DNA of 64,000 bases from a phage. Numbering within the stretch: position 1 is the first letter of the stretch; each line of letters starts with the position of its first letter. Shown here one piece after another: positions 52,067 through 61,555 of the stretch. Below the pieces are notes generated by a model. It searched no databases, was not told the DNA's origin, and saw nothing but the letters and a program-made list of their open reading frames with translations. The position numbers were made by a program, and so were the translations under genes. Location of the stretch: sequence record OZ346187.1. The stretch is one strand, 5' to 3'.

Positions 52067-53350
52067 TCATTCCAGCACCTCCCAAGTGTCTGGGTTAACA
52101 TTCCGGACGCAGATACCGACAGGGAATTGGTAGTTGTTGTCTTCTGTCCTTGCTTGATATTTGAAGGTGACAAACTTGCCGATCATTTCCTGCATTCTGT
52201 CATAGCTACGCTCCTCGTGCGTACCTTTCATCTTCATTTTAACAACAACACCTTCCTTGTCAACACAGATAAGAACACCTTCATCATTCTTATCTTTCTC
52301 AACGTCAATAACTTTCACCTCTGCGTCGTTGAACTTTTTCCATTTCAATGCTTCAGATGTTCGCTGACCATACTCATATTTACCGCAGAAATTACGCATG
52401 ATAGTACCTTCATATCCTTCGGACATGAATATACCAACAGATTCTTCGCAATGATCAACTGTGTACGCAAGCTCTGCGTCAACAACCTTGATATGATCAA
52501 GCATCAGAGTGGTAACGGTATCCTCTGCATCCATAAGATCCTTGCAGCGTCCAGACTCTGTTTCTGGATCCCACCACACCTTGTCGCTAGGAATATCAAA
52601 AATGTGATACTCCAGATCGTAGCTACAGTATCCACCGTAACGCAAATCATCACGAACAGGCTCAACATCGACAGGAATATCTACCTTGTTGAAGTTTTTG
52701 TATGTTGATAAGCCTGCCTTAATTGCTGCATGACGGCGTTTTTTATCTGCCTCATAGTCTTTATCGATCTCGGCCTGAATCTCTTCCTGTGTGCGCCACC
52801 GTTTAGCAAGAGACACTATTTTCTGCAAAGGAAGACCATGAATGTATAGTTCCCCATCAAGTTGTTTAATCCCAGTGGTAGAATGGAAAGAACGAAGTTG
52901 CTCTAAAAGCTTTCCTTGAATAGGGTAGGACTTATTACCACGGGAAATAAATTTAGGCTCACCATTTTGGAAAACAACAAGCAGACGAAGGCCATCTAAC
53001 TTACGCAAGATCCAGCAAGGTAATTTAAGTGCCTTGCCACGCTTCAGGTAGTCATGCACCAGCATAGGTAAAAGATCAACACCCTGCTCGCAATCTTCCA
53101 TGTTTTCAACATACCCCAGACGGACTTGTTTTTCCCACTTGCTGATAGCCTCAAGCTCGGCCTGTTGCTCAGCTGTAGTCTCGTTGGCACGACCTACGTT
53201 TTTAGGTGTGCATACCGTCTCTTTGTACTGCAATTTACCGTCAAGCTTGCCAAACTCTACGATAACCTTTTCGCCATCAGTGAATACTTTCCACTGTTGG
53301 TAGCTGCCATCTTTGTTCAGTGCGTACAGTGTTGTTTTGATTTGATGCAT
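52067..53350 (-). CDS. ATP-dependent DNA ligase
   Basis: Adenylation motif I RKLDGLR (KxDGxR). Confidence 0.7.
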   Translation of the reverse strand: MHQIKTTLYALNKDGSYQQWKVFTDGEKVIVEFGKLDGKLQYKETVCTPKNVGRANETTAEQQAELEAISKWEKQVRLGYVENMEDCEQGVDLLPMLVHDYLKRGKALKLPCWILRKLDGLRLLVVFQNGEPKFISRGNKSYPIQGKLLEQLRSFHSTTGIKQLDGELYIHGLPLQKIVSLAKRWRTQEEIQAEIDKDYEADKKRRHAAIKAGLSTYKNFNKVDIPVDVEPVRDDLRYGGYCSYDLEYHIFDIPSDKVWWDPETESGRCKDLMDAEDTVTTLMLDHIKVVDAELAYTVDHCEESVGIFMSEGYEGTIMRNFCGKYEYGQRTSEALKWKKFNDAEVKVIDVEKDKNDEGVLICVDKEGVVVKMKMKGTHEERSYDRMQEMIGKFVTFKYQARTEDNNYQFPVGICVRNVNPDTWEVLE

Positions 53351-53976: not shown

Positions 53977-54690
53977 TTAAATATACTCTGTTACATCCTT
54001 GAAGCTCGAAGGCTTCATAATCTTACCTTTACTGTCAAGGAATATAATAGCTTTATTACCGTTGTAGAACTCCTCTTTAGCAACGAAACCTTCGTAGCGA
54101 CCACCAAAACGACGCTCAAGATCTTCAATCTCTAACTCTATGAGCAATTCAGTAGACATATCTGCACTGGCACCGTGAGAATATCGTAGATGGTTGATCC
54201 GTGCAAACTTGCTGTCATTAGATTTGAGAACCTTCCGCATCATCCCACACACATCGCCGCGAAGCTGGAACAGCAAAGCTGTTGACAACTCCGCTAAGCG
54301 GTAAGCTGACGCTCTTTGCTTGGATGTGTTTTTCGCAGCGATCAGTGTATCATAGAACTCACCGATCTTGAACTTAAGACCTCGTGGATTATCAAACAGG
54401 TTTGACCACTTTTCGTGATTATCATTAACAAGATAAGCGGCATAACTTGTGACAACGTGAAGATCGCAGGCCTCTTTTAGCAGGTGATCTCCACCATCAC
54501 CTTTCTCCAGCTCTTCCAAAACCTCATTGAACTCTTCCTCAATGAAGCTAAGCTGTAATTCGAATGGTGTGTATGATTTTTTCACTTTAGCTGCCACACG
54601 GTTCCAGTTTTCCACCCAGTTGGCAGACCAAAGGTAGTTTTCAGGCTGAGACAGTTTTTCCAGGTTGTCGATCAGTTTAGTATTCAGCAT
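53977..54690 (-). CDS. hypothetical protein, possibly MazG-like NTP pyrophosphohydrolase
   Basis: Acidic helix FIEEEFNEVLEELEKGD...KEACDL resembles the MazG EExxE...D motif; weak. Confidence 0.35.
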   Translation of the reverse strand: MLNTKLIDNLEKLSQPENYLWSANWVENWNRVAAKVKKSYTPFELQLSFIEEEFNEVLEELEKGDGGDHLLKEACDLHVVTSYAAYLVNDNHEKWSNLFDNPRGLKFKIGEFYDTLIAAKNTSKQRASAYRLAELSTALLFQLRGDVCGMMRKVLKSNDSKFARINHLRYSHGASADMSTELLIELEIEDLERRFGGRYEGFVAKEEFYNGNKAIIFLDSKGKIMKPSSFKDVTEYI

Positions 54691-54703
54691 TGAAGGTCTC
54701 CTT

Positions 54704-55465
54704 TTAAAGTTCCATAAAGTTTTCTACAGTTTCAATAAATGCTTTATCAGAGAAAGCGTCAACAGCACCGTTAAACCATACAGGGATCCCGCGATCCTCA
54801 TATTGATAAAGGTCGCTACGTGAAATGCCACTTCCATCTGCACTCTGCGAGTCATACTTGTTTACAATCAGCAGTTTTGTGCCTTTACAAGTAGCAGGAA
54901 ACAATTCCCAGTTAAAATTAATAACTGTGTTAGAACAACCTACTAGGATCACCATATCATTGCTTGTGAGAGATGTCAACAGGTCATACATGTCTGTATA
55001 CTTAGGAGCAACCTCACCGAAGAACACTACATTGGGCTTAACCCAGGTATACTTGCCTGTATCTACCTCCGTGTATCCGATATTTTTAATTACATCATTA
55101 CCTTCAGCATCTTCGTAGGTGATTTCAGGCAAATACCCGTGGACATGTAAAATATCTTCATGTTTTACACCAGCACGCTCCAGCAAATCATCTACATTGG
55201 TGGTAAGGTTGATCACACGACCAGACCAGCGGGAATACCACTCAGCGATCCGAAGATGTGCAAGGTTAGGATCAACACTGCCCAGAGCTACACGACGTGC
55301 ATTGTAAAAGTCATGCACCTTATAGTAATTCTTGGCAAAGGTGTGAATGTTGCACACCTCATCGATGCTGAAATTCTCCCACATTGCAGTGCTACCAGAT
55401 CGGAAAGTGGGAATACCAGATTCAGCGCTCAAACCAGCACCGGAGATAATAATCAGTCGTCGCAT
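54704..55465 (-). CDS. Sir2-family NAD-dependent protein (sirtuin-like)
   Basis: GAGLSAESGIPTFR matches the sirtuin NAD-binding motif; HG and VVFFGE downstream; no CxxC zinc module seen. Confidence 0.7.
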   Translation of the reverse strand: MRRLIIISGAGLSAESGIPTFRSGSTAMWENFSIDEVCNIHTFAKNYYKVHDFYNARRVALGSVDPNLAHLRIAEWYSRWSGRVINLTTNVDDLLERAGVKHEDILHVHGYLPEITYEDAEGNDVIKNIGYTEVDTGKYTWVKPNVVFFGEVAPKYTDMYDLLTSLTSNDMVILVGCSNTVINFNWELFPATCKGTKLLIVNKYDSQSADGSGISRSDLYQYEDRGIPVWFNGAVDAFSDKAFIETVENFMEL

Positions 55466-55473
55466 AAGTGTCC

Positions 55474-55824
55474 TCAGTAGATGTTTTGTTTAATCTCTAT
55501 TCCAAACTTCTTGAATGAGTCAGCAGCAAGCATAAATTTACGAGCTGCCGATGGATTAGAAGTATGCACGAAAATAATCACGTTGTCAATAAGTGGTGGC
55601 TTTCCGAATACAAGTTTCTCCTCTAGCGCAGAGAAGCAGTCGTACCCTTCAAGCACTTCACCTAGATCATTGTCAAAATACCACTCAGATACGCGTCTGT
55701 AGAGCTTTCTCTTATCATTAAGAAAATCCATAAACTCAGAAGAATTCTTTAGCCACAGAGCGTCTGGGAGTCCATAATCTGACGGATCTCTAAAATCATC
55801 AAGCCACACAATCCACTTCTTCAT
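55474..55824 (-). CDS. hypothetical protein
   Basis: ORF-track ORF. Confidence 0.45.
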   Translation of the reverse strand: MKKWIVWLDDFRDPSDYGLPDALWLKNSSEFMDFLNDKRKLYRRVSEWYFDNDLGEVLEGYDCFSALEEKLVFGKPPLIDNVIIFVHTSNPSAARKFMLAADSFKKFGIEIKQNIY

Positions 55825-56756
55825 TGCATATAGTCCTCGTTGTGGAAATAGTAGTCCAGTATCTCACGACGCTCCTGCTCTAATAAGCAATTCCACACAT
55901 CTTCTGTATAGTTGCTACGAATAAATTTTACCATACCGTAAAACTCTTCGTCAACACGTTTAAAGATATCATCATCCCAAATCTTCCAAGCTTTACCCCT
56001 CATTACTGCCTTCTGTGCCAGATAGTATGGAGACTTGATCTTCAGCTGCAGATCATAAGGGTAGTAAGGCTTACGAATCATATACCCTTCACCTCTTGTT
56101 TCTGCAGCTAATTCTTTTGCATAGCTGAACGGAATTTCACGCACAGTGTTAGGACGTTTTGCACCAAGGTATTTGGCAATCCCATCTAAAGCTGCTTCTG
56201 GTAGCATTATTCCAGAATCATTATATCTGCAACCTATCAAATATGCGCCATGGTCTTCTTGAACAATATGCGGATCTGAAGGGTGACAAATTTCAAACAT
56301 GAATGTCATGTTTTCATTGCCCATAACCTTCTTGATAAGATCTAAATTACCACATTGCTCTTGGATGGTTTCCTTTGCAAGGTTACAATATGGAGAATCA
56401 AGAGACCCGGTTGTTGAGAACAATAGGTCACCTTTATGAGATGATACCACACCAAGGAATCCGTTCTTTTTCTCTACCGCAGTCACAAGCTTATTGTCAG
56501 GCAGGTTGGTGGAGTTTTCTCCCAAGTTAAACACTTTTGTGAAGGGCCATGCCACAACATTTCCTTCATTACCTACAACAATGCCTCGGCACTCCAGTAA
56601 ACGAGGGGACAAATGCCATAAATTGTTGTAAAATACTTTTCTAGCATATTTATAGATCTTTAACCCGAGATCTGGGTAATACCTACTGGTTGCAAGACCT
56701 TTGTCAACTAGGTCGTCTGCATTAAAATACTTCATTATATGTTCCTCATTTGTCAT
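55821..56756 (-). CDS. putative RNA ligase (nucleotidyltransferase KxNG)
   Basis: VEKKNGFLG fits the ligase lysine motif K-x-(D/N)-G; a DNA ligase is encoded separately. Confidence 0.5.
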   Translation of the reverse strand: MTNEEHIMKYFNADDLVDKGLATSRYYPDLGLKIYKYARKVFYNNLWHLSPRLLECRGIVVGNEGNVVAWPFTKVFNLGENSTNLPDNKLVTAVEKKNGFLGVVSSHKGDLLFSTTGSLDSPYCNLAKETIQEQCGNLDLIKKVMGNENMTFMFEICHPSDPHIVQEDHGAYLIGCRYNDSGIMLPEAALDGIAKYLGAKRPNTVREIPFSYAKELAAETRGEGYMIRKPYYPYDLQLKIKSPYYLAQKAVMRGKAWKIWDDDIFKRVDEEFYGMVKFIRSNYTEDVWNCLLEQERREILDYYFHNEDYMQ

Positions 56757-56799
56757 TTTGTCAGTCTATCCTGCCACACAAATAACTTAGTGTCAACAC

Positions 56800-56828
56800 T
56801 TGAAATTAACAAAACAGTTAGGTATACT
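56800..56828 (+). promoter_or_regulatory. sigma70-like promoter TTGAAA-17-TATACT
   Basis: -35/-10 hexamers with 17-nt spacer ~29 nt upstream of the kinase ATG. Confidence 0.5.
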
Positions 56829-56856
56829 ACCGTTGAAATTAAAACGGAGGGTCGCT

Positions 56857-57267
56857 ATGTCTAAAATGCTATATATCGTGCGTGGTCTACCAGGGTCTGG
56901 CAAATCAACACTGGCAAATGCGCTATCTTTAGAGGGTCTGTATCCACATTTTGAGAACGACATGTTCTGGTATGACGATGACGGCAATTACAACTGGGAT
57001 GCAAGTAAAGTAACACTCGCAGCAAAATGGTGCAAAGATAACGTAGAAGATATGATGCGTATGGGATACGACCGTATCGTGGTAAGTAATACGTTTACAA
57101 AAGAAAAACATGTGCAGGAATATGTTGACATGGCAATCACTCATGGGTATAGTTATACCGTGATCGTGGTTGAAAACCGCCACGGCAATAAAAGCATTCA
57201 TGATGTTCCAGACAAGGTTGTGGATCGTATGGAACGCCAGCTTAAAAACTGCATTAAACTTAAATGA
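56857..57267 (+). CDS. P-loop polynucleotide kinase-like protein
   Basis: Walker A GLPGSGKST at residues 9-17; ORF-track start 56800 trimmed to ATG 56857 after GGAGGG RBS. Confidence 0.6.
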   Translation: MSKMLYIVRGLPGSGKSTLANALSLEGLYPHFENDMFWYDDDGNYNWDASKVTLAAKWCKDNVEDMMRMGYDRIVVSNTFTKEKHVQEYVDMAITHGYSYTVIVVENRHGNKSIHDVPDKVVDRMERQLKNCIKLK

Positions 57268-57274
57268 GGAATGT

Positions 57275-57829
57275 ATGAAATACTTTGTAACAAGCGACAC
57301 ACACTTTCTCCACCAGCGGGTCATGGAGTTTGATTCATGTCAAAAACACAGATCTCAGTATGATCACAATCTTGACAGTATGAATGCGGGAATCATCACC
57401 AAGTGGAACTCTGTTGTGTCACCTGCAGACACTGTGTTCCACTTGGGAGATATTGCATGCACTAATGATAAGAATATCAACAAATTGCTCCCAGATATTC
57501 TAAATATGTTGAACGGACATATTATTCTTGTTCGTGGCAACCATGACACAAGGACGACTGTCAAAATTATGAAAGAGTTCGGTCATGAGGTTGTAGATTA
57601 TTACGAGCTTCGCCACAACAAGAATTTGATCTGTATGAGCCATTACCAGTTTGCAAAGTGGAACAGAAAGCCTCACGGATCAGTCCAACTGTTCGGTCAT
57701 GCTCACGGAACCACACAACAGTTGTTTGGCAGGCAGCTTGATGTCGGTTGGGATGTGTGGGGGAGACTCTTACCATTAGAAGAGGCATACCGTATTGCAA
57801 TGAGTTTTGATATTGACAGCAGGGAGTAA
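57275..57829 (+). CDS. calcineurin-like metallophosphoesterase
   Basis: VTSDTHF, HLGDI, RGNHD, GHAHG motifs; ORF-track start 57170 trimmed to ATG 57275. Confidence 0.6.
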   Translation: MKYFVTSDTHFLHQRVMEFDSCQKHRSQYDHNLDSMNAGIITKWNSVVSPADTVFHLGDIACTNDKNINKLLPDILNMLNGHIILVRGNHDTRTTVKIMKEFGHEVVDYYELRHNKNLICMSHYQFAKWNRKPHGSVQLFGHAHGTTQQLFGRQLDVGWDVWGRLLPLEEAYRIAMSFDIDSRE

Positions 57830-57876
57830 TCCCTGCTATTTTAAAGAAAATTGCCACACAAGGAGAATCAGGAGAT

Positions 57877-58227
57877 ATGAAAGATGGGGATAAGCTGCTA
57901 TATCTTAAAGTCCCCCTTGAAATACTATCTATGTCAAAAGTTTTGAATGACACAACTGGGGAGGTTGTTGTTCTTGACTTGTATGACAAGATCGTATACT
58001 GCTACCTGCACAACTGGTATAAGCTTGGAGGAAATTCACGCTTCACACCAAGCACAAGGAAAATTGCAGCAGATGTTGGGATAAAGAAAACAAAAGCAGC
58101 AGCGTGCGTTAAAACTTTAGAATGTGCAGGAGTGGTTGAAACATCCACACAAGGGAGAGGTAAAAGATGCACATTTTCCAAAGTTTTGCCACCAGAAGAA
58201 GTTATTCGGATGTCAACAACTGGTTAG
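57877..58227 (+). CDS. putative DNA-binding protein (winged HTH)
   Basis: STRKIAADVGIKKTKAAACVKTLECAGVVE looks like an HTH recognition helix; lies just upstream of tandem palindromic repeats. Confidence 0.45.
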   Translation: MKDGDKLLYLKVPLEILSMSKVLNDTTGEVVVLDLYDKIVYCYLHNWYKLGGNSRFTPSTRKIAADVGIKKTKAAACVKTLECAGVVETSTQGRGKRCTFSKVLPPEEVIRMSTTG

Positions 58228-58303
58228 ACCAGTAAAAACTTAAATATCTGTACTATAAGGATTCGTATGTTTTATGTTCGCCATGGAACGGATACTATTA
58301 ACT

Positions 58304-58363
58304 GTCCGTGATACGGACACATCTGCCCGTAATACGGACACTAACTGTCCGTGATACGGACAC
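58304..58363. repeat. three tandem palindromic sites GTCCGTGATACGGACAC / GCCCGTAATACGGACAC / GTCCGTGATACGGACAC at 21-22 bp spacing
   Basis: Each unit is a 6-bp inverted repeat GTCCGT..ACGGAC with 3-bp spacer; followed by a very AT-rich stretch. Confidence 0.8.
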
Positions 58364-58866
58364 ATAAAGAATATAACTAAAATAACTAAATAATAAAAAA
58401 TAAAAGATCTAGTACTTATGGTACTAAGTACATATACTTAACTTATGTAGAATATACTAGATCCTAAGTACCATGTTTTAAATTTATTACTTACTATGGG
58501 CAGTGTCGGCCCTTCATTGGCACTCGCCTACGAGGGGCGAGATGCCGGGCCTCCTTGGTGCACACAATAACAGAAGTTCATACATGCAGGTCTGTTAACA
58601 TGTGTGGGAGCGAAGCGATAGCGCAGGCCAAAGGCCGAGCACTGATGTGGGCCACCGACGAAAGCTTGCCAGCGCCGTAAGGAGTCGGTTGAGAGTCTCC
58701 CGCACGAGCTTGGATGAAGTTTATGTGTGGAAACTGACAAGAAGGCCCCTAAATCGCTCCACAGCTATATAAACTATACCAGGTAATGCAATCGCACCAG
58801 TTTGATAGAAAAGCTCGTTACAAAGCGATACAGTGAGTTTTTCTATAACTTGAAGAGGAGGCAGCT

Positions 58867-60742: not shown

Positions 60743-60817
60743 GCCCTGTTAGCTTAGTGGATAAAGCAGCGGCCTTCTAAGCCGTTGACACTGGTTCGAG
60801 TCCAGTACGGGGTGCCA
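60743..60817 (+). tRNA. tRNA-Arg (anticodon TCT), CCA encoded
   Basis: Cloverleaf: acceptor GCCCTGT/ACGGGGT, D-arm GCTT..AAGC, anticodon loop CTTCTAA, T-arm ACTGG-TTCGAGT-CCAGT. Confidence 0.8.
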
Positions 60818-60821
60818 AATT

Positions 60822-60908
60822 GGGGAGTTATCCCGTAGAGGTAGCGGTGTAGACTGTAAATCTATTGTCATTGCGACTCGGGTGGTTCGACTCCACCACT
60901 CCCCACCA
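60822..60908 (+). tRNA. tRNA-Tyr (anticodon GTA), long variable arm, CCA encoded
   Basis: Acceptor GGGGAGT/ACTCCCC, anticodon arm GTAGA-CTGTAAA-TCTAT (GACUGUAAAUC as in E. coli tRNA-Tyr), T-arm GGTGG-TTCGACT-CCACC. Confidence 0.8.
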
Positions 60909-61022
60909 AATTTATATTTTTAGATGCATAAATAATACAGATAATGGCATTGATATTTATCGTCGTTTATACTAGTCACTAACTGCTCGAAAATCAGTGT
61001 CATTATCAGTATAATTTATAAA

Positions 61023-61113
61023 GGAGGGTAGGGAGCAATGGTGCTCAAGCGGTCTTGAAAACCGTCCCGTTGAGGATGACTCGATGATGGTTCGATTCCA
61101 TTACTCTCCGCCA
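61023..61113 (+). tRNA. tRNA-Ser (anticodon TGA), type II, CCA encoded
   Basis: Acceptor GGAGGGT/ACTCTCC, anticodon arm GCGGT-CTTGAAA-ACCGT, long variable arm, T-arm GATGG-TTCGATT-CCATT. Confidence 0.75.
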
Positions 61114-61211
61114 CATTGTTGACCTTGTAATTAAGCGAAAGCCGGAAGCAGAACCGGATTATCAAATGTTACAGTCGTCATCGCCGACTAGCAACATGGT
61201 CAACATACTGA

Positions 61212-61310
61212 GCTAGGTAAGCCCTTTGGCAAGGGCGAGGATTTTTAATCCTGAAAATAGACGAGGTAGTCGTTGAATACATAGGTGGTTCGATTCCATC
61301 ACCTAGCACC
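61212..61310 (+). tRNA. atypical tRNA-like gene (possible tRNA-Lys TTT with ~30-nt extra arm) or tRNA pseudogene
   Basis: Perfect acceptor GCTAGGT/ACCTAGC, D-arm GCCC-TTTGGCAA-GGGC, T-arm GGTGG-TTCGATT-CCATC, but 47 nt between D and T arms; loop TTTTTAA on a 4-bp stem. Confidence 0.4.
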
Positions 61311-61315
61311 TTTTT

Positions 61316-61391
61316 GCTGATGTAGCACAATCGGTAGTGCAATTGATTTGTAATCAATAGGTTGTAGGTTCAAGTCCTGCCATCAGCACCA
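61316..61391 (+). tRNA. tRNA-Thr (anticodon TGT), CCA encoded
   Basis: Acceptor GCTGATG/CATCAGC, D-arm GCAC..GTGC, anticodon arm ATTGA-TTTGTAA-TCAAT, T-arm GTAGG-TTCAAGT-CCTGC. Confidence 0.8.
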
Positions 61392-61392
61392 A

Positions 61393-61467
61393 GGCCCTGT
61401 AGCTGGAAGGTTCAAGCAAGCGACTCATAATCGCCAGACGGTGGTTCAATTCCACCCAGGGCCACCA
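61393..61467 (+). tRNA. tRNA-Met or Ile2 (anticodon CAT), elongator-type, CCA encoded
   Basis: Acceptor GGCCCTG/CAGGGCC with G1-C72 pair, anticodon loop CTCATAA, T-arm GGTGG-TTCAATT-CCACC. Confidence 0.75.
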
Positions 61468-61478
61468 AATAGTAAATA

Positions 61479-61555
61479 CTCCGCGTAGCTCAGCTTGGTA
61501 GAGCGCCTGATTTGGGATCAGGAGGTCGAGTGTTCGAATCACTCCGTGGAGACCA
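61479..61555 (+). tRNA. tRNA-Pro (anticodon TGG), CCA encoded
   Basis: Acceptor CTCCGCG/CGTGGAG, D-arm GCTC-AGCTTGGTA-GAGC, anticodon arm CCTGA-TTTGGGA-TCAGG, T-arm GAGTG-TTCGAAT-CACTC. Confidence 0.8.

Follow-up and report, generated by a model that had tools for sequence, protein, structure and literature searches.

Bacteriophage T4 counters the anticodon nuclease PrrC with two enzymes, Pnkp (PseT) and Rnl1 (gp63), and Clostridium thermocellum carries the chemistries of a P-loop polynucleotide kinase, a binuclear metallophosphoesterase, and an adenylyltransferase/ligase in its Pnkp protein (CthPnkp). A further arrangement, a sirtuin-centered phage RNA-repair neighborhood of type 2 "prototyped by Escherichia phage V5 and Proteus phage Mydo," has been described by Iyer, Burroughs, Anand, de Souza, and Aravind (2022, Viruses 14:1977, PMC9503650, section 3.7.3). 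Here, a window of 64,000 nucleotides of phage DNA (sequence record OZ346187.1; the window is the whole stretch that was analyzed, and all coordinates refer to it) was studied for a cassette at 55821-57829, which encodes an RNA ligase, a P-loop kinase, and a metallophosphoesterase within 2009 bp. We estimate a probability of roughly 0.65 that this cassette encodes a T4-like RNA heal-and-seal pathway divided among three proteins.

Escherichia phage nomine (Vequintavirus) matches the region 55400-58300 at 99.9% identity, and 94 phage records, nearly all of them Vequintavirus (V5-like) Escherichia coli myophages of 135-140 kb, match it at 95% or more. The phage group is thus that of the type 2 neighborhood, and the same six families (sirtuin, T4-like tRNA ligase, cREC, nucleotide kinase, MazG, and calcineurin-like phosphoesterase) lie contiguously at 53977-57829; the window cassette is the type 2 system of Iyer et al. 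A first-pass annotation of this DNA had suggested an undescribed split repair system. That suggestion falls, since related GenBank records are annotated and the neighborhood has been described for phage V5 (PMC9503650): databases and publications already contain both the locus and the hypothesis, described by computation. In the BASEL phage Bas48, for instance, the three homologues are annotated as "RNA ligase," "polynucleotide kinase," and "putative phosphoresterase," and the flanking genes as "sirtuin domain NAD-dependent deacetylase" and "ATP-dependent DNA ligase."

RESULTS

Three enzyme families with intact catalytic residues

Open reading frame (ORF) calling placed three ORFs in the cassette. 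The first-pass annotation had read from them a KxNG nucleotidyltransferase motif, the kinase motif GLPGSGKST, and the phosphoesterase motifs DTHF, GDI, GNHD, and GHAH, and all of these were found. Hidden Markov model searches, in which the curated Pfam thresholds were passed, bore out the three families as Rnl1-type, polynucleotide-kinase-like, and calcineurin-like. The genes had also been called separate and divergently transcribed; they are three genes, and the ligase runs opposite to the rest across a 100-bp spacer, but the kinase and phosphoesterase share the plus strand.

The ligase matched Pfam RNA_lig_T4_1 (PF09511) over model positions 1-227 of 227 (55.4 bits; cut-off, 28.3; E = 1e-14) and phrog_562 (E = 4e-65). 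Searches of the PDB with the single ligase or kinase sequence returned only noise, and family profiles were required. The ligase family profile (A2), made from 39 homologues that are 43-50% identical, about 300 amino acids long, and mostly found on contigs of tens of kb to about 150 kb, matched T4 Rnl1 (2C5U) across the nucleotidyltransferase domain (E = 4.7e-13). The KKNG motif occupies residues 96-99. Residues R57, K74, F76, K96, G99, E155, E223, G224, K239, and K241 were invariant in the 39 homologues and aligned, in order, with T4 Rnl1 R54, K75, F77, K99, G102, E159, E227, G228, K240, and K242, residues that are essential in T4 Rnl1 according to mutagenesis by the Shuman laboratory; at the position of T4 D101 the ligase has Asn. 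The protein is 304-311 amino acids long, compared with 374 for T4 Rnl1. Because the family alignment and a GAGGAA Shine-Dalgarno sequence favor the ATG at 56735, the true start is most likely Met8, giving a predicted protein of 304 amino acids. The Bas48 and Bas54 ligase genes are annotated as 918 nt with the start at codon 7, which is ATG in Bas54 and ATA in the window. Because the phage encodes a distinct ATP-dependent DNA ligase (Table 1), the cassette enzyme is no second DNA ligase.

The kinase matched Pfam AAA_33 (42.7 bits; cut-off, 27; E = 9e-11), phrog_2071 (E = 1e-57), and phrog_505, "polynucleotide kinase" (E = 4.6e-10). Its family, the stand-alone "predicted kinases" of about 130 amino acids, is very large: more than 7990 clusters were retrieved. 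The Walker A sequence GLPGSGKST spans residues 10-18, and G10, G13, G15, K16, and T18 were invariant in 38 homologues, as were D35, N78-T79, and E106-N107-R108-H109. The best profile matches in the PDB that covered most of the domain were RNA or polynucleotide kinases: Pnkp1 (4XRP; 5e-5), tRNA(Sec) kinase (5e-5), T4 Pnk (1.4e-4), and CthPnk (9e-4). The top-ranked match, the Rhizopus kinase 9D8A (E = 4.9e-6), was significant over the P-loop only; this protein appears to be the Mucorales tRNA-splicing RNA 5'-OH kinase (PMC11571804). In hhalign, the family aligned with the T4 Pnk kinase domain (T4 sequence 100% identical to X03007) at 96.4% probability (E = 1.2e-9), with D35 opposite the T4 general base D35 and K16 opposite T4 K15. 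An AlphaFold (AF2) model, with a predicted local distance difference test score (pLDDT) of 83, gave query-normalized template modeling (TM) scores of 0.76 to CthPnk, 0.75 to T4 Pnkp, 0.72-0.74 to tRNA(Sec) kinase, and 0.71 to Pnkp1, versus 0.47-0.60 to UMP-CMP, adenylate, shikimate, and gluconate kinases. As modeled, the fold is nearer to polynucleotide and tRNA kinases than to nucleoside-monophosphate or sugar kinases, and a nucleotide kinase, the other possibility raised at first pass, is disfavored.

The phosphoesterase scored above the cut-offs of Pfam Metallophos_2 (28.3 bits; cut-off, 27) and Metallophos (27.8 bits; cut-off, 21.5) and matched phrog_547 (E = 1.8e-51). Its motifs are SDTHF (residues 7-11), GDI (58-60), GNHD (88-91), and GHAH (141-144), and the metal ligands D8, H10, D59, N89, H90, H123, H142, and H144 were invariant in 42 homologues. 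The closest solved structure to the AF2 model (pLDDT, 93.6) was Aquifex 1XM7, by sequence (E = 5e-11) as well as by fold (E = 2e-8; TM score, 0.64). The next fold matches, Mre11, MJ0936, and LpxH, had TM scores of at most 0.47.

The kinase and phosphoesterase are constant partners of the ligase

To place the cassette in a wider context, viral contigs were scanned with the ligase profile, yielding 80 loci, each taken with flanks of up to 10 kb; their ORFs were searched with the window proteins in two rounds (phmmer, then hmmsearch). The loci formed 41 groups at 70% ligase identity. The kinase accompanied the ligase in 37 groups, in 30 of them within 600 nt (28 adjacent and 2 fused), and the phosphoesterase in 35, of which 24 within 600 nt; both lay no more than 1.6 kb from the ligase in 28 of 41 groups. 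The clustering of the three families in these 28 ligase-anchored groups is therefore not chance. Two same-strand orders recurred, phosphoesterase-ligase-kinase and kinase-ligase-phosphoesterase, often with overlapping stop and start codons, and other contigs, with genes called independently, also had ligase-kinase overlaps. Kinase and ligase form a single protein of 421-432 amino acids in two groups (13 loci), and phrog_8238, a profile of 737 positions, has the kinase N-terminal and the ligase C-terminal. Vequintavirus was the sole group with the kinase and phosphoesterase inverted relative to the ligase.

The cREC, Sir2, and MazG-like proteins were found in only 3-4 of 41 groups (within 600 nt: cREC in 3, Sir2 in 1, and MazG-like in 0), confined to groups whose phages are roughly 145 kb in size. 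The ligase is thus constantly partnered by the phosphoesterase and kinase, to which certain lineages have added the sirtuin, cREC, and MazG.

Several loci depart from this pattern. No phosphoesterase homologue was found within 10 kb at L040, L041, L046-L048, L050, L052, L054, L056-L059, and L061. On a 283-kb jumbo-phage contig (L002:6001-8326), a kinase-phosphoesterase pair with a 4-nt overlap stands without an adjacent Rnl1-type ligase, so that the healing pair may also be usable with other partners or the ligase may be encoded elsewhere; the 414-amino-acid protein that follows the pair was considered as a divergent ligase and rejected, as it matched nothing in Pfam and did not resemble the ligase profile (hhalign probability, 0.1%). 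On 91-kb and 100-kb phage contigs (L003/L004 and L006), a phosphoesterase-ligase-kinase operon lies a few kb from genes of nicotinamide adenine dinucleotide (NAD+) salvage (nicotinate phosphoribosyltransferase [NAPRTase] and ribose-phosphate pyrophosphokinase-like), and in L004 a Macro-domain gene and another metallophosphoesterase are close by. These contigs are another tie of RNA repair genes to NAD+/ADP-ribose metabolism.

Neighboring genes and transcription

The features of the locus are collected in Table 1. Of the extent first proposed for the cassette, the trio at 55821-57829 stands, but the adjoining cREC, Sir2, and MazG-like genes had been overlooked, and the end coordinate of the minus-strand ligase gene, where its start codon lies, is probably 56735. 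The functional unit reaches leftward to 53977, taking in these three genes (53977-55824).

Table 1. Features of the cassette and its surroundings in the window (kb, kilobases; HTH, helix-turn-helix)
Feature	Position	Strand	Basis or remark
ATP-dependent DNA ligase	52067-53350	-	2.5 kb from cassette
MazG-like nucleotide pyrophosphohydrolase, 237 aa	53977-54690	-	phrog_671
Sir2-family protein, 253 aa	54704-55465	-	Pfam SIR2, phrog_2162
cREC (cyclic-phosphate-processing receiver-like) protein, 116 aa	55474-55824	-	Pfam cREC_REC PF20274, phrog_1479
Rnl1-type ATP-dependent RNA ligase, 311-aa ORF	55821-56756	-	Pfam, phrog, family profile
Divergent intergenic region between ligase and kinase	56757-56856	.	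Promoter-like site 56800-56828 (+) and kinase Shine-Dalgarno sequence
Stand-alone P-loop kinase, 136 aa, polynucleotide 5'-kinase-like, predicted 5'-OH RNA kinase	56857-57267	+	Pfam, phrog, profile, fold
Calcineurin-like metallophosphoesterase, 184 aa, Aquifex 1XM7 clade, predicted 2',3'-cyclic-phosphate/3'-phosphate RNA healer	57275-57829	+	Pfam, phrog, fold
HTH protein (DUF6945/HTH_36), annotated transcriptional regulator	57877-58227	+	Directly 3' of phosphoesterase gene
Seven tRNA genes	60743-61555	+	ARAGORN, Rfam

The cREC protein matched PF20274 (E = 9e-14) and phrog_1479 (E = 6e-33), and its gene overlaps the ligase stop by 4 nt. The family, defined by the group that also described the type 2 neighborhood, is a predicted cyclic phosphodiesterase or cyclic-phosphate-processing enzyme linked to RNA ligases (PMC7824862, PMC9503650). 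The Sir2 protein matched Pfam SIR2 (E = 7e-28) and phrog_2162 (E = 1.5e-108); it has been proposed as a KptA/Tpt1-like remover of RNA 2'-phosphate (PMC9503650). It retains the GAGxS NAD-binding motif and the HG catalytic-histidine motif (LHVHG), but its cysteines number only three and form no CxxC pair, so that the zinc-ribbon module seen in canonical sirtuins seems to be missing. The MazG-like protein matched phrog_671 (E = 5.7e-22) and nothing in Pfam or NCBIfam; MazG is counted in the sirtuin neighborhood (PMC9503650). Between 49.9 and 59.6 kb, the genes flanking the cassette encode a C5-cytosine methyltransferase, an HNH endonuclease, an endolysin, the DNA ligase, small hypothetical proteins, the MazG-like, Sir2, and cREC proteins, and the HTH protein.

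For the kinase, a longer TTG-started ORF begins at 56800, but the 56857 ATG is preceded, at 5 nt, by a strong Shine-Dalgarno sequence (GGAGGG). A promoter-like TTGAAA-17-TATACT sequence lies at 56800-56828 on the plus strand, a consensus match only (10 of 12 positions); the promoter scan as a whole was not clearly above shuffled sequence (13 sites versus 8.5 ± 2.8), and a terminator scan of 55300-58400 returned no sites. The boundaries of the transcription units were placed by gene orientation and guanine-cytosine skew only.

Eighteen GenBank records named "Campylobacter phage" (MG065635, MG065653, MG065661, and MG065682 among them) match the region at about 97% identity to E. coli Vequintaviruses, and Campylobacter jejuni is the stated host in 16 of 120 matching records; the four records named here carry no annotation. 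Mislabeling or contamination may lie behind these entries.

A tRNA cluster lies downstream

As first noted, seven tRNA genes lie some 3 kb away: they were called by ARAGORN and all seven were matched by Rfam, the first beginning 2914 bp past the end of the phosphoesterase gene. In order, they are Arg-TCT, Tyr-GTA, Ser-TGA, a 97-nt Lys-UUU-like gene, Thr-TGT, CAT (Met/Ile), and Pro-TGG. The cluster is context and not a demonstrated part of the cassette. Among the ligase loci, at least three tRNA genes lay no more than 10 kb from the ligase in 16 of 41 groups.

The 97-nt tRNA (61212-61308, plus strand) is unusual. ARAGORN gave it a 4-base anticodon, Rfam scored it at only 35.5 bits, and its Bas48 homologue is annotated as tRNA-Lys(AAA). 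The anticodon loop reads UUUUUAA (anticodon UUU, Lys) and is followed by an extra arm of about 27-31 nt in which a separate 5-bp hairpin forms; folding of the entire tRNA gave a cloverleaf (-34.2 kcal/mol; z = -3.7). A class-II-like form is odd for tRNA-Lys(UUU), the tRNA that PrrC, RloC, and PARIS classically target. An intron that would need the ligase was considered; the extra 27-31 nt sit at the variable-arm position with their own hairpin, making a long variable arm more likely.

Transposon insertions in a relative

Genetic data come from a transposon-sequencing preprint that includes the Vequintavirus Bas54 (bioRxiv 10.1101/2025.11.20.689424). The Bas54 orthologues are 84-99% identical to the window proteins, and the ligase orthologue is identical at 298 of 305 positions. 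On E. coli K-12, insertions were recovered at 56 of 60 TA dinucleotide (TA) sites in the RNA ligase gene, 33 of 36 in the kinase gene, and 26 of 27 in the phosphoesterase gene, all classed as non-essential. The sirtuin and MazG-like genes were also non-essential on this host, and cREC was "intermediate" (16 of 21 TA sites). In T4, under the same method, rnlA was intolerant of insertions in its N-terminal domain. The dispensability of all six Bas54 genes fits an accessory counter-defense function. Since the Bas54 orthologue of the DNA ligase (bas54_0203) was non-essential as well (69 of 73 TA sites hit), the data suggest that the host ligase is sufficient on E. coli K-12 in place of the phage enzyme. 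The orthologue of the HTH protein, also scored "intermediate," received about 13 insertion reads per site versus 140-400 for its neighbors, and this protein may be more important to phage fitness than the repair genes. The Bas54 library was also passaged on the clinical strains CFE303 and CFE311 (bioRxiv 10.1101/2025.11.20.689424), and over these three E. coli hosts the data give the cassette and its linked genes as dispensable.

DISCUSSION

A predicted heal-and-seal pathway

The three proteins, each with its family's catalytic residues intact, probably act jointly on broken RNA ends, because the genes are conserved as neighbors and kinase and ligase are fused in some phages. The phosphoesterase, possibly together with cREC, would turn a 2',3'-cyclic phosphate or 3'-phosphate into a 3'-OH; the small P-loop kinase would phosphorylate the 5'-OH; and the Rnl1-type ligase would adenylate the 5'-phosphate and then seal the break. 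The mended RNAs would most likely be cut tRNAs. From this arrangement we infer an RNA substrate, the identity of the 3'-healing enzyme, and a role in counter-defense; for the phosphoesterase, a role on RNA ends is suggested by gene context alone. In Vequintavirus, the cREC, Sir2, and MazG-like proteins may in addition supply an NAD+-dependent removal of 2'-phosphate, as proposed by Iyer et al. (2022), and the T4-like and NAD+-dependent routes may both be present in the phage.

Several observations weigh against a three-protein RNA repair pathway. The structure closest to the phosphoesterase, 1XM7, is itself a protein of no known function, and no lambda-phosphatase or CthPnkp phosphatase structure appeared among the top 50 fold matches of the phosphoesterase. 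Lambda phosphatase and the CthPnkp metallophosphoesterase domain do hydrolyze RNA 2',3'-cyclic phosphates (PMC2190708), which is a precedent in favor of such a healing enzyme, but the cassette protein falls outside this clade with proven RNA 3'-healing; because it belongs with 1XM7, its likeness to the Pnkp phosphatase is at the superfamily level only. In the kinase alignment, T4 Pnk R38, which contacts the acceptor phosphate, falls in a gap and has no counterpart, and the invariant R108 pairs with T4 R122 in a low-confidence segment, the T4 lid arginine being Arg126. The ligase alignment to 2C5U ends at T4 residue 250, so that nothing in the protein corresponds to the C-terminal, tRNA-specificity domain of T4 Rnl1; against NCBIfam TIGR02308, the T4 RnlA equivalog, the ligase scored 38.5 bits (cut-off, 242.25). 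For these two reasons the protein is classed, by sequence, as an Rnl1-family member and not as a T4 RnlA orthologue. Although tRNA genes lie no more than 10 kb from the ligase in 26 of 41 groups, this figure has no chance model. On the genetic side, the preprint gives no defect of Bas54 cassette-gene transposon mutants on E. coli K-12, and in a resampling table for the clinical strains the abundance of insertions in the cassette genes was not significantly changed (log2 fold change, +0.1 to +0.4; adjusted P value, 0.75-1.0) (bioRxiv 10.1101/2025.11.20.689424). In the literature, we found no biochemical or genetic test of the ligase, kinase, or phosphoesterase of V5-like or similar phages.

Alternative explanations

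The closest competitor, published by Iyer et al. (2022, PMC9503650), is that an NAD+-dependent, Trl1/Tpt1-like route is the main one. Here, cREC would open the cyclic phosphate to 2'-phosphate/3'-OH, the kinase would act, and the ligase would seal, leaving a 2'-phosphate at the junction that Sir2 would move to NAD+ in the manner of KptA/Tpt1; MazG and the phosphoesterase would only clear ADP-ribose by-products. The route thus overlaps the split heal-and-seal pathway and differs in the 3'-healing enzyme. The cREC, Sir2, and MazG-like genes do adjoin the ligase on its strand, cREC by the overlap noted above, and the neighborhood is kept in 3-4 groups of roughly 145-kb phages. However, cREC, Sir2, and MazG accompany the ligase in just 3-4 of 41 groups and the phosphoesterase in 35, mostly as its direct neighbor; the phosphoesterase therefore appears to be the central healing enzyme. 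Neither a sirtuin nor cREC is known to act on RNA ends, cREC being called uncharacterized in PMC9503650. We regard this route as rather unlikely to be the main one.

Alternatively, the kinase and phosphoesterase could clean 5'-OH/3'-phosphate DNA termini, for example after nuclease attack, for the nearby DNA ligase to seal. DNA ends are substrates of T4 Pnkp and of mammalian PNKP, the latter being among the kinase fold matches; a DNA ligase homologue lies no more than 10 kb away in 16 of 41 groups, as it does here; and the phosphoesterase had a weak NCBIfam match to the ligase-associated PdeM (E = 1.6e-4, far under the cut-off). However, the partner ligase is an Rnl1-family enzyme, it is this RNA ligase rather than the DNA ligase that the kinase overlaps or is fused with, and just 1 of 41 groups has a DNA ligase within 600 nt. 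DNA-end repair is accordingly improbable.

Least probable of all, to the point of being very doubtful, is that the genes are unrelated, with the ligase as a T4 gp63-like tail-fiber attachment factor, as records labeled "RNA ligase 1 and tail attachment protein" would have it, and the kinase and phosphoesterase acting on free or signaling nucleotides, for example as a phosphodiesterase directed against the cyclic-oligonucleotide-based antiphage signaling system (CBASS), to which weak kinase matches to nucleotide kinase families and the existence of cyclic-nucleotide phosphodiesterases among metallophosphoesterases would lend themselves; against this stand the three families adjacent or fused across 41 groups, a kinase fold nearer to polynucleotide than to nucleotide kinases, and the Bas54 insertions, which leave no essential morphogenetic role apparent for the ligase. 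Because the Bas54 ligase tolerates insertions and T4 rnlA does not, the "tail attachment" label on many records looks like a carry-over from T4 annotation. Both DNA-end repair and unrelated functions are made less likely by the tightness of the ligase-kinase linkage.

What the split pathway would mean

If the split heal-and-seal pathway is correct, the cassette would be one way in which large virulent coliphages survive tRNA-cutting defenses (PrrC, RloC, PARIS, and retron- or OLD-type tRNases), and large virulent coliphages of this type are phage-therapy candidates. RNA end-healing would then have been built from interchangeable parts several times. A more specific proposal, which we hold only tentatively and consider doubtful, is that a 1XM7-clade phosphoesterase is the RNA 3'-healer of a widespread phage trio (28 of 41 groups), to which Vequintavirus has added a Sir2/cREC/MazG branch whose sirtuin removes RNA 2'-phosphates. 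Were this so, the 1XM7-clade phosphoesterase would be a third, independent solution to 3'-healing after the haloacid dehalogenase (HAD) and lambda-phosphatase types, and the removal of RNA 2'-phosphate would be a new sirtuin activity. Both ideas are foreshadowed in papers from the Aravind laboratory, so that what would be new is the biochemistry, the locus itself having been discovered already.

Comparison with known systems

The type 2 neighborhood and the present census, both computational, differ in emphasis: the description of Iyer et al. is sirtuin-centered and calls the phosphoesterase "occasional," whereas in the ligase-anchored census the kinase and phosphoesterase are near-universal and the sirtuin, cREC, and MazG are occasional.

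If the Sir2/cREC branch works, its chemistry would parallel fungal and plant tRNA splicing by Trl1 and Tpt1, in which a cyclic phosphodiesterase, a kinase, and a ligase are followed by NAD+-dependent removal of the 2'-phosphate. The ligase domain of Trl1 and the cassette ligase share the broad Rnl1-like lineage. The phage differs in having no 2H cyclic phosphodiesterase or KptA/Tpt1 homologue, with the non-homologous cREC and Sir2 as putative substitutes.

The Capnocytophaga gingivalis Pnkp1-Rnl-Hen1 complex (PMC4411300; PDB 4XRP), compared here through its kinase, is a precedent for healing and sealing on separate proteins, and Pnkp1 ranked high among the matches of the cassette kinase by sequence and by fold alike. 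That complex is bacterial, includes the Hen1 methyltransferase, and keeps kinase and phosphatase on one protein.

The first-pass annotation had likened the cassette to bacterial Pnkp. The same three chemistries are indeed predicted, and the kinase fold matches CthPnk best. However, CthPnkp is one polypeptide and the cassette three genes on two strands; the CthPnkp phosphatase is of the lambda-phosphatase clade and the cassette phosphoesterase of the Aquifex 1XM7 clade; and the RNA 2'-O-methyltransferase partner Hen1 is absent among the flanking genes at 49.9-59.6 kb. As these three defining features (a single polypeptide, a lambda-phosphatase-clade enzyme, and an adjacent Hen1) fail, the cassette is not a member of the Pnkp family.

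Relative to T4, the cassette kinase is a stand-alone protein of 136 amino acids; 3' healing would fall to a metallophosphoesterase and/or cREC instead of a HAD (DxDxT) phosphatase domain; and the ligase lacks the C-terminal domain of T4 Rnl1, scores under the RnlA equivalog cut-off, and is dispensable in Bas54. What the two have in common is the ligase family with its catalytic residues kept, a homologous kinase domain with the general-base Asp aligned, and the predicted logic of healing both ends and then sealing them.

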